DNA of 57,248 nt from Enterobacteria phage 2851. The position numbers are program-made. The stretch lies in sequence record NC_049943.1; one strand, written 5' to 3'. Below, piece by piece: positions 24,001 through 27,000 of the stretch. How positions within the stretch are numbered: position 1 is the stretch's first letter; each line of letters starts with the position of its first letter.

Positions 24001-27000
24001 AGTTGACAGTTGCCTGTCAGACTGAGCATTCGTTAAAAAAATTCGCATGGTGAATCCCCCTGTGCGGAGGGGCGACTGGTGTATAAGGTGTCATCTCTGA
24101 CGACAACCTGGAGCGAGATACGCGGGTTCAGGGACACCGGACTGAACTCACCGGGAGGCACCCGGCACCATGTACATGATGATACAGATACGCAGTGTCA
24201 GCCCCTCTCCGGAGGGGCTTTTTATCTGAATGATTCTGTTATTTTCGCCCGTATGGGCATATTTCCAGAATGCAGCGATGATTAAAACACTTATCTGTGA
24301 TATTTCCTGTGTTTGCAGGGCACTCCTGGCTGTTTTTAATTAAATTCCAGACGTTTTTATTAAATGGGGCCACGTTGTAAATGGTGACGGGGAGCTCTTT
24401 ATTATTGAGTATTACGCCTGTCCGGGTTGGTGTAAAAATACAGCCCGGAGGGAGGAAGGTATCTGACTGATACCATAATATTAATTTTATGTTACACCAT
24501 ATGGCTGAAAATGATATGCCACATGCTGGCTGGATTACCGTGTCAATCACTATCCAGTTCATTTGCTTTCCTTATTTTCTTAAGGTTTTAAATGATGCCA
24601 TAAATTATAGGTGATGTTTTGAAAGCAATCTGTCAGGCTGAGTTGTTTTTCTGGTGTCGTTTATTCTTTGTTTAAAATAAGAGGGCATTTTAAATTGTCG
24701 GCGTTTTTTTGTTATATAAGAGACATGGTTTTTTTATAGCGTGTTTTTTATGTGTTACATGATTGTGTGTTCCGGATAATTACTTTGCTGGCGGCAGGAG
24801 AGGTTATGACATTTAAACACTACGATGTGGTCAGGGCGGCATCGCCGTCAGACCTTGCTGAACGACTGACACAAAAACTGAAGGAGGGCTGGCAGCCATT
24901 TGGCAGTCCGGTGGCCATCACGCCTTACACCCTGATGCAGGCCATTGCGGCGGAAGGTGATGTCACCACACCAGTGGCGGTGACCGGTAATGAGGGTAAG
25001 GCGGTGGCTGTCAGTGCCACCAGAGCCCCGGAGTATTACTTTATTGTGGTTCTGGCGGGGCAGTCAAACAGCATGGCATATGGTGAAGGCCTTCCGCTGC
25101 CGGAGACATATGACCGTCCGGACCCGCGTATTAAGCAGCTGGCGCGCCGCAGTACGGTGACACCGGGCGGTGTCGCCTGTAAATATAACGACATCATTCC
25201 GGCGGACCATTGTCTGCATGATGTGCAGGACATGAGCCGCCTTAACCATCCGAAAGCGGACCTGTCAAAGGGGCAGTACGGAACCGTGGGGCAGGGGCTG
25301 CATATCGCCAAAAAATTGCTGCCGTTTATACCGGCGAATGCGGGCATTCTGCTGGTTCCGTGCTGTCGTGGTGGTTCAGCGTTCACCACCGGAGCTGATG
25401 GCACATACAGTGACGCGAGTGGTGCTTCGGAGAATTCAACCCGCTGGGGTGTGGACAAGCCGCTGTATAAGGACCTTATCGGTCGAACAAAAGCAGCACT
25501 GAAGAAGAACCCGAAAAATGTGCTGTTTGCCGTGGTGTGGATGCAGGGGGAATTTGATTTTGGCGGTACGCCGGCAAATCACGCAGCACAGTTTGGTGCG
25601 CTGGTTGATAAATTCCGTGCAGACCTGGCGGATATGGCAGGTCAGTGAGTCGGTGGCTCTGCTGACGGTGTTCCCTGGATATGCGGGGACACGACGTATT
25701 TCTGGAAGCAGAAGAACGAAGCCACCTACCAGACGGTGTACGGCAGCTACAAAAACAAAACGGAAAAAAATATCCATTTCGTACCGTTCATGACGGATGA
25801 GAACGGGGTGAATGTGCCGACGAACAAACCGGAAGAAGACCCGGACATTCCGGGTATCGGATATTACGGTTCGAAATGGCGTGACAGCTCAGCCACCTGG
25901 ACGTCACAGGACAGGGCGAGCCATTTCAGCGCCTGGGCACGCTGTGGGATTATTTCCGACCGTCTGGCAACGGCGATTTTGCGCCATGCGGGAAGAGTGG
26001 CGCTAAACGCGGGGGCATCATCGACAGTATCAGAGGTGCGCCCGTCATCGCCTTCCGGTGCAGAAGCCACAGGCGTCACAACACTGCTCTCTTACCTTGC
26101 CAGCGAGTCAGAGGGAAGCCTGAAAGTACAGGGATGGTCAGCCAGTGGCGGCAGGGCAGAAGTGGTCAGCGATGCGGAGGGAACCGGAGGTAAGGCAGTG
26201 AAGCTGACCAAGGAGGCCGGTAAAAGCAGCTGGGTGCTGGAGTACGCCGCGGGCAACGGTGCGGCTCTGTTACAGAAAGGGGGGCAGATTCGCTGCCGCT
26301 TTAAGGTTTCGGGAGCGCTGGCTGCGAACCAGTATGTTATGGCGTTTTACTGGCCGGTATCTTCACTGCCACAGGGCGTTGCCCTGACCGGAGACGGGGG
26401 GAATAACCTGCTGGCAGCGTTCTACATCCAGACAGATGCAAAAGACCTGAATGTGATGTACCACAATGCGAAAGTGGCGACAAACAACCTGAAACTGGGA
26501 ACCTTTGGCGCATTTGATAACGAATGGCATACGCTGGCTTTCCGCTTTGCCGGGAATAACAGCCTTCAGGTGACGCCGGTTATTGATGGTCAGGATGGCA
26601 CACCGTTCACGCTGACGCAGTCACCGGTCAGTGCATTTGCGGCGGATAAACTGCATGTGACAGACATTACCAGGAATGCGACTTACCCGGTGCTGATTGA
26701 CAGCATTGCGGTGGAAGTGAACAGCACAGACACTGCGGCATGATAAAAAAACCGCCAGCGACAGGAATGGACGCTGGCGGTGGTAATACCTATGGAGAAA
26801 AAATAAAGGAACGATACTTTCGTGCTCTGGTTTTTTAAATGAAAACAGTTCTTATTGTCAACAATAACGGAAAGAAATTATGACATTTCTGAACCAGTTA
26901 ATGCTGTACTTCTGTACGGTGGTCTGTGTGCTGTATCTCCTTTCGGGTGGATACCGGGCCATGCGTGACTTCTGGCGCAGACAGATTGACAAAAGGGCCG

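Follow-up and report, generated by a model that had tools for sequence, protein, structure and literature searches.

The sequence record of Enterobacteria phage 2851 (NC_049943.1), analyzed here as one stretch of 57,248 nucleotides (the window), raises a question directly downstream of its Stx2c toxin genes, where two open reading frames (ORFs) occupy the place in which a single NanS-p-like esterase gene is usually found. A sequence-only reading had proposed that these ORFs are the halves of one esterase gene split by an in-frame TGA, and had offered a recent nonsense mutation (of a presumed TGG codon), a sequencing error or a read-through site as the cause. Our analysis makes it very likely that nanS-p of the 2851-type Stx2c phage has been inactivated by a genuine point mutation, a C>A change at position 25648 that turned TGC (Cys281) into TGA. 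The split itself is already known from public annotation, where record AJ605767 lists ORF7 and ORF8 and three RefSeq genomes have pseudogenes marked 'internal stop'. The mechanism is an ordinary one: a redundant accessory gene of the phage was lost to a nonsense mutation, and no recoding signal was found.

Translation of the frame 24752-26743 (+) revealed a sole internal stop, the TGA at 25646-25648 (context CAG TGA GTC). The ORFs at 24752-25648 and 25736-26743, which share a reading frame in the ORF list of the window, are parted only by this codon, as had been claimed. Counted from the ATG at 24806, which is preceded by a Shine-Dalgarno sequence read directly from the window (AGGAGAGG, 24796-24803 (+)) and to which the starts annotated in homologs also map, the complete frame (24806-26743 (+)) comprises 645 codons plus a terminal TGA and is exactly as long as the intact homologs WP_000143087.1 and YP_002274254.1. 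The continuous 645-codon esterase frame predicted after stx2B was confirmed by this length and by the membership of both halves in the same protein family: in the 634-position PHROG profile phrog_143, one half matches positions 1-276 and the other matches positions 307-633. Because the halves match consecutive parts of one profile, they represent a single gene and not a chance juxtaposition. With the stop masked, Pfam assigned PF08410 (DUF1737) to amino acids (aa) 3-50, PF03629 (SASA) from aa 80 and PF20350 (DUF6645) to aa 489-607; together with the PDB structures 3pt5 and 6yp6, these matches show the three-domain NanS-p architecture (DUF1737, SASA/SGNH, lectin-like DUF6645) in the full frame. 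The gene also has the position of a nanS-p. Upstream lie stx2A (22561-23661) and stx2cB (23673-23942), a B-subunit gene of Stx2c type, holin/endolysin genes follow from about 27449, and the order stxAB, nanS-p, holin/endolysin is the same in relatives. On the evidence of translation, Pfam and PHROG comparisons, the locus is a NanS-p (sialate 9-O-acetylesterase) family pseudogene, split by one nonsense codon.

Comparison with intact relatives identified the ancestral state of the codon. Alignment to homologs placed a sense codon opposite the stop, as the sequence-only reading had anticipated, but that codon was TGC (Cys281) and not the TGG it had guessed. TGC is present in all intact relatives examined (FDAARGOS_293, phage 1717 and phi24B), so that the premature stop at 25646-25648 (+) arose by a C>A transversion at 25648, the base that distinguishes TGA from TGC, and the assumed TGG is replaced by TGC (Cys) as the ancestral codon. 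Residue 281 itself is not conserved, its equivalent in the alignment to the Escherichia coli NanS structure 3pt5 being Leu. In FDAARGOS_293, 2 of 6938 aligned bases differ from the window, 25648 and 25943 (C at both), and the gene is intact, encoding a 645-aa protein annotated as 'SASA family carbohydrate esterase' (WP_000143087.1). The same intact gene of 2851-type Stx2c prophages is carried by strain 9000 and many UK cattle isolates, in a surrounding 6.9 kb identical to the window but for the two bases, which make codon 281 TGC and codon 380 CGT. An intact allele this close bears out the proposal of a recent nonsense mutation; judged by these alignments, the split is caused by a recent point mutation, TGC to TGA, in nanS-p.

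The frequency of the two alleles was determined by megablast with 45-nt probes centered on the site, for which a central mismatch leaves no 28-nt seed, so that each probe reports its own allele only; 5426 complete E. coli genomes and a collection of phage records were searched. The TGA probe was found in 3 of the 5426 genomes (the O157 strains 10671, MB41-1 and Al Ain) and in one phage record, AJ605767, and the TGC probe in 608 of the genomes, at 1289 places. At least 80% of window positions 1-25000 was recovered in one matching place in about 118 genomes, the best matches listed being ~100% identical. The 2851-type prophage is therefore common, and TGA is a minority allele within it. The carriers of TGA originated from cattle in the United Kingdom (10671) and the USA (MB41-1), a camel in the United Arab Emirates (Al Ain) and a human in Germany (AJ605767). 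Two sub-branches can be told apart among them. One, made up of the window and MB41-1, has C>T at 25943 (+), a second derived change (CGT>TGT, Arg380Cys, R380C) identified by alignment and a 45-mer probe; the other, made up of 10671 and Al Ain, has a synonymous G>A at 26215 (E470). Since the sub-branches have TGA in common but differ at 25943 and 26215, the stop was inherited and is older than both changes.

These data bear directly on the suggestion that the stop is a sequencing or assembly error and that the true codon at 25646-25648 is a sense TGC. A difference of one base from hundreds of intact copies is what such an error would produce, but the identical TGA recurs in AJ605767 and in three genomes assembled independently of one another, four separately produced sequences that span four countries and three host species, and it is common to sub-lineages that differ at 25943 versus 26215, which indicates inheritance and not a repeated artefact. 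The independent recurrence of TGA and the sub-lineage structure exclude an error, leaving it virtually no probability. By the allele counts and the shared changes, TGA is the derived minority state and a rare, real allele; it would have persisted and spread as a rare variant, and the sub-branch of the window and MB41-1 would later have gained R380C.

Across the 1938-bp frame the window is 100% identical to AJ605767 (phage 2851) and to E. coli O157:H7 MB41-1, which among the complete genomes is alone in having the nanS-p sequence of the window. In MB41-1 the stx2c B-subunit gene is broken by IS1203, and both stx2B and nanS-p are lost at the locus. The complete genome of phage 2851 has the accession FM180578 (PMC3359367). 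AJ605767 and the window are identical within nanS-p and differ at 23 positions elsewhere in 23306-27652; in the comparison of 23306-27978, the alignment ends after 27652, where the endolysin gene starts. Either these mismatches are errors or a chimeric end in an early record, or the window belongs to a very close relative and not to the same isolate.

The stop at codon 281 lies within the catalytic domain. DUF1737 (aa 3-50, 24812-24955 (+); PF08410, E=4e-16) is intact upstream of it, and the catalytic SGNH/SASA domain extends over aa 71-393 (25016-25984 (+)) by alignment to 3pt5 (E=1e-115). The SGNH blocks of NanS and NanS-p have been described, including a His block given as 'RSSH or RASH' (PMC10462455). 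By motif, and following this description of the blocks, block I GQSN with the nucleophile Ser87 was located at aa 85-88 (25058-25069 (+)), upstream of the stop, and the His block RASH, with His373, at aa 370-373 (25913-25924 (+)), downstream of it; both of these NanS-p hallmarks are in the DNA, but the stop parts them and they do not lie in one polypeptide. The C-terminal domain, a lectin-like jelly roll (aa 423-640, 26072-26725 (+); DUF6645 at aa 489-607), shows one difference in 218 residues from 6yp6, the solved structure of a NanS-p lectin-like domain. Altogether the stop costs the catalytic domain its final ~113 residues and eliminates the lectin-like domain entirely. Translation from the ATG at 24806 would end at codon 281, and the predicted truncated product of 280 aa (ORF7 of AJ605767, 24806-25648 (+)) would retain the complete DUF1737 and roughly the N-terminal two thirds of the esterase domain, including the Ser87 part of the SGNH fold, without the His block. 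SGNH hydrolases require the block-V His. With GQSN and RASH separated by the stop, this requirement predicts a 280-aa product devoid of esterase activity, also toward Neu5,9Ac2.

The remnant downstream of the stop is ORF8 of AJ605767 (335 aa from a GTG, 25736-26743 (+)), which comprises the end of the esterase and the lectin-like domain. As AJ605767 annotates ORF7 and ORF8 as two coding sequences for hypothetical proteins, the locus could be read as two separate functional genes, ORF7 supplying DUF1737 and ORF8 a free carbohydrate-binding protein. Both of these domains are intact in their respective ORFs, and the phi24B homolog is cut into domains of which only DUF1737 stays on the capsid (bioRxiv 10.64898/2026.04.10.717836). 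The locus is, however, one base away from the single intact gene of hundreds of genomes, and homologs have one 645-aa gene here; two separate genes would have spoken against a split. The break lies inside the catalytic domain and not at a domain boundary, and the Prokaryotic Genome Annotation Pipeline (PGAP) treats the locus as one pseudogene, each of the genomic copies with TGA (10671, MB41-1, Al Ain) carrying the note 'internal stop'. Nor is ORF8 well placed for expression. The GTG at 25736 has no Shine-Dalgarno sequence, no in-frame ATG, GTG or TTG was found between 25649 and 25735, and the first possible start is 88 nt past the stop, so that reinitiation should be poor. Reinitiation at ORF8 was rejected on these grounds, and the remnant is probably not translated. 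We consider two functional genes quite improbable and favor a single gene interrupted by a nonsense mutation.

Loss of the esterase would not necessarily extend to DUF1737. Proteolysis of gp84, the NanS-p homolog of the short-tailed phage phi24B, yields a DUF1737 (to about Gly54) that decorates the capsid (bioRxiv 10.64898/2026.04.10.717836). By analogy, the stop may strip NanS-p of its enzymatic and lectin 'cargo' alone and spare a role of DUF1737 in capsid decoration, which would make it a natural separation-of-function allele; we put this forward tentatively, as an unlikely possibility. If true, virions would still be decorated and the esterase lost, the esterase would be dispensable for the phage, and selection may keep the N-terminal domain. 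A direct transfer of the phi24B result was rejected. When the head proteins, the portal and the terminase of phi24B were compared with the window by tblastn, no significant match was obtained (best E=0.049), and the structural module of the window is of the lambda-like long-tail type, with a large terminase, a fusion of protease and major capsid protein (protease-MCP), a portal, a major tail protein, a tape measure and J.

The window gene closely resembles gp84 (vb_24B_21) of phi24B and L0105/Z1466 of 933W in its position between stxB and the lysis genes, its 645 codons and its three domains, with 586 of 645 residues of the window frame identical to gp84. In contrast to these genes, it carries TGA at codon 281 together with R380C and cannot make the full-length enzyme. 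The remaining difference is concentrated at the N terminus: 39 of the 59 differing residues fall in aa 32-73 (24899-25030), the second half of DUF1737 and the linker, which is completely unlike gp84 and belongs to another subtype ('DUF 3' in PMC10462455), whereas the rest is ~97-99% identical. DNA of the N-terminal type of the window was found in 72 phage records (24 Stx1a, 17 Stx2c and 11 'Stx2-converting') and its type of head gene (33225-35162, protease-MCP) in 91 (36 Stx1a, 17 Stx2c and 11 'Stx2-converting'); nanS-p overall was present in 308 phage records, mostly of Stx2a phages. Because the 72-record set mirrors the 91-record set, the N-terminal subtype of NanS-p appears to track the capsid module, which may reflect functional coupling or no more than shared ancestry. 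The co-occurrence hints that the N-terminal domain is matched to the type of capsid, and with it that ORF7 may still provide a decoration domain.

UGA aligned with Cys is the classic signature of a Sec/Cys pair and the sel machinery is present in E. coli, so the replacement of a codon that is TGC in all intact relatives examined brings selenocysteine (Sec) recoding into question, in which SelB and tRNA-Sec would decode the UGA. Recoding of this kind was assessed with a structural descriptor of the selenocysteine insertion sequence (SECIS), as a covariance model was impractical with only two distinct sequences, whose 3' arm was misaligned by MAFFT. A bacterial SECIS hairpin is expected about 11 nt 3' of the UGA, with a bulged U and with GU in its apical loop. 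The descriptor accordingly required that a helix begin 12-18 nt from the U of the UGA and consist of 2-3 bp, then a bulged U and another 3-6 bp, closed by a loop of 3-6 nt with GU. The genuine E. coli Sec sites used as controls, fdhF (codon 140), fdnG and fdoG (codon 196 in both), all passed at position 15, with a background of 30 of 2363 TGA sites in the window. This descriptor, which recovers three genuine elements, detected no SECIS-like hairpin 3' of the nanS-p UGA, even when the bulge or the GU was not required. Hairpins near the UGA were not more stable than those of shuffled sequence (z = -1.46) and are unchanged in TGC alleles, and an Rfam scan of 25400-25900 returned nothing beyond a chance-level match on the opposite strand (E=3.5). 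Residue 281, Leu in NanS, is not a conserved or redox Cys, and a UGA found in only 3 of 5426 genomes is not conserved in the clade. Selenocysteine was rejected for want of a SECIS, for the unconserved residue and for the rarity of the UGA, and we regard its likelihood as negligible.

Functional read-through, programmed or selected, would instead yield a regulated full-length esterase. Of the three stop codons UGA is the leakiest in E. coli, and residue 281 tolerates variation. Yet no suppressor tRNA was identified in the phage, whose only tRNA anticodons are CAT, TCG and TCT, and no read-through or recoding RNA family was matched in Rfam. The flanks of the UGA are identical to those of the sense-codon alleles, so nothing has evolved there to promote read-through; the allele is rare and not conserved, and R380C has accumulated downstream at a conserved Arg. 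With no SECIS-like structure, suppressor tRNA, Rfam element or conservation of the TGA, the read-through site that the sequence-only reading had allowed for was not upheld, and we judge functional read-through highly improbable.

The three tRNA genes of the window lie at 22366-22609, upstream of stx2A. In the ARAGORN prediction the first is a tRNA-Met (CAT), in contrast to RefSeq, where the identical gene of relatives is a tRNA-Ile; this gene is of the usual lysidine-modified ileX/ileZ type.

Inactivation by the nonsense mutation, which we prefer to recoding and read-through, may be followed by further degenerative changes. The Arg380 of intact NanS-p copies is also conserved in NanS; the window has Cys there, and R380C was found only on the TGA background (45-mer probe, 1 of 5426 genomes, MB41-1). 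Changes after the stop amount to only two events, the missense R380C in one sub-branch and the synonymous change at E470 in the other. Several considerations temper a complete loss of function. A G after UGA does not make the strongest context for termination, and basal read-through by tRNA-Trp may occur at a low level; since residue 281 is variable, the product of such read-through might fold. The pattern of later changes is equally cautionary: R380C fits relaxed constraint as a single substitution, and although both single-nucleotide polymorphisms acquired within 8 kb after the split (2 of 2) lie inside nanS-p (P about 0.06), these numbers are too small for significance.

The relatives of the gene place its loss in context. 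E. coli NanS (YjhS, 3pt5) shares the SGNH/SASA domain aligned over aa 71-393, with GQSN and R(S/A)SH, but lacks the DUF1737 and lectin-like domains and has Leu for Cys281 and Arg where the window has Cys380. In two Pankowvirus/Stx2c relatives, Stx2a_WGPS8 and Stx2_EH1904, the same gene is inactivated by different and independent lesions. Stx2a_WGPS8 (AP012540, 501-2438) has TGG>TGA at codon 574 (W574*) and is annotated as a pseudogene. Stx2_EH1904 (LC645408, 1887-3195) has a 1309-bp IS629/IS1203-like insertion after nt 1386, with a 5-bp duplication; the inserted element is 96% identical to an IS3-family (IS629/IS1203-like) element at window positions 17250-18558, in the phage early region. Among genomes with any nanS-p-like place, the median number per genome was 2 and the maximum 8, and each genome carrying TGA had 4. 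In EDL933, seven nanS-p alleles all yield active esterases (reviewed in PMC8065619), and a 2023 survey of NanS-p diversity did not include phage 2851 and mentioned no stop codon. O157:H7 strains have several further nanS-p paralogs, located on other prophages, so that loss of the copy at the stx locus would be tolerated, probably through the redundancy of nanS-p-like copies. The simplest interpretation of these sequences is that a redundant accessory gene has been lost repeatedly.

The immediate surroundings of nanS-p contain further features. A 107-aa ORF at 24239-24562 (-), between stx2B and nanS-p, is labeled anti-adapter protein IraM by PGAP in relatives (WP_001303568.1). Two terminator-like hairpins were identified, a strong one with a T-run just 3' of stx2B (24200-24219 (+)) and one facing the minus strand directly after the nanS-p stop codon (26752-26764 (-)).

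Taken together, these results indicate that the stx-linked nanS-p is naturally knocked out in phage 2851, which is the prototype Stx2c phage, and in a small O157 sub-lineage of wide geographic range. This status is relevant wherever 2851 is used to study NanS-p, the use of mucin sialic acid or virion decoration. Considered with W574* in WGPS8 and the insertion in EH1904, the stop at codon 281 points to a recurrent loss of stx-linked nanS-p in Stx2c phages, which fits the redundancy provided by its paralogs.

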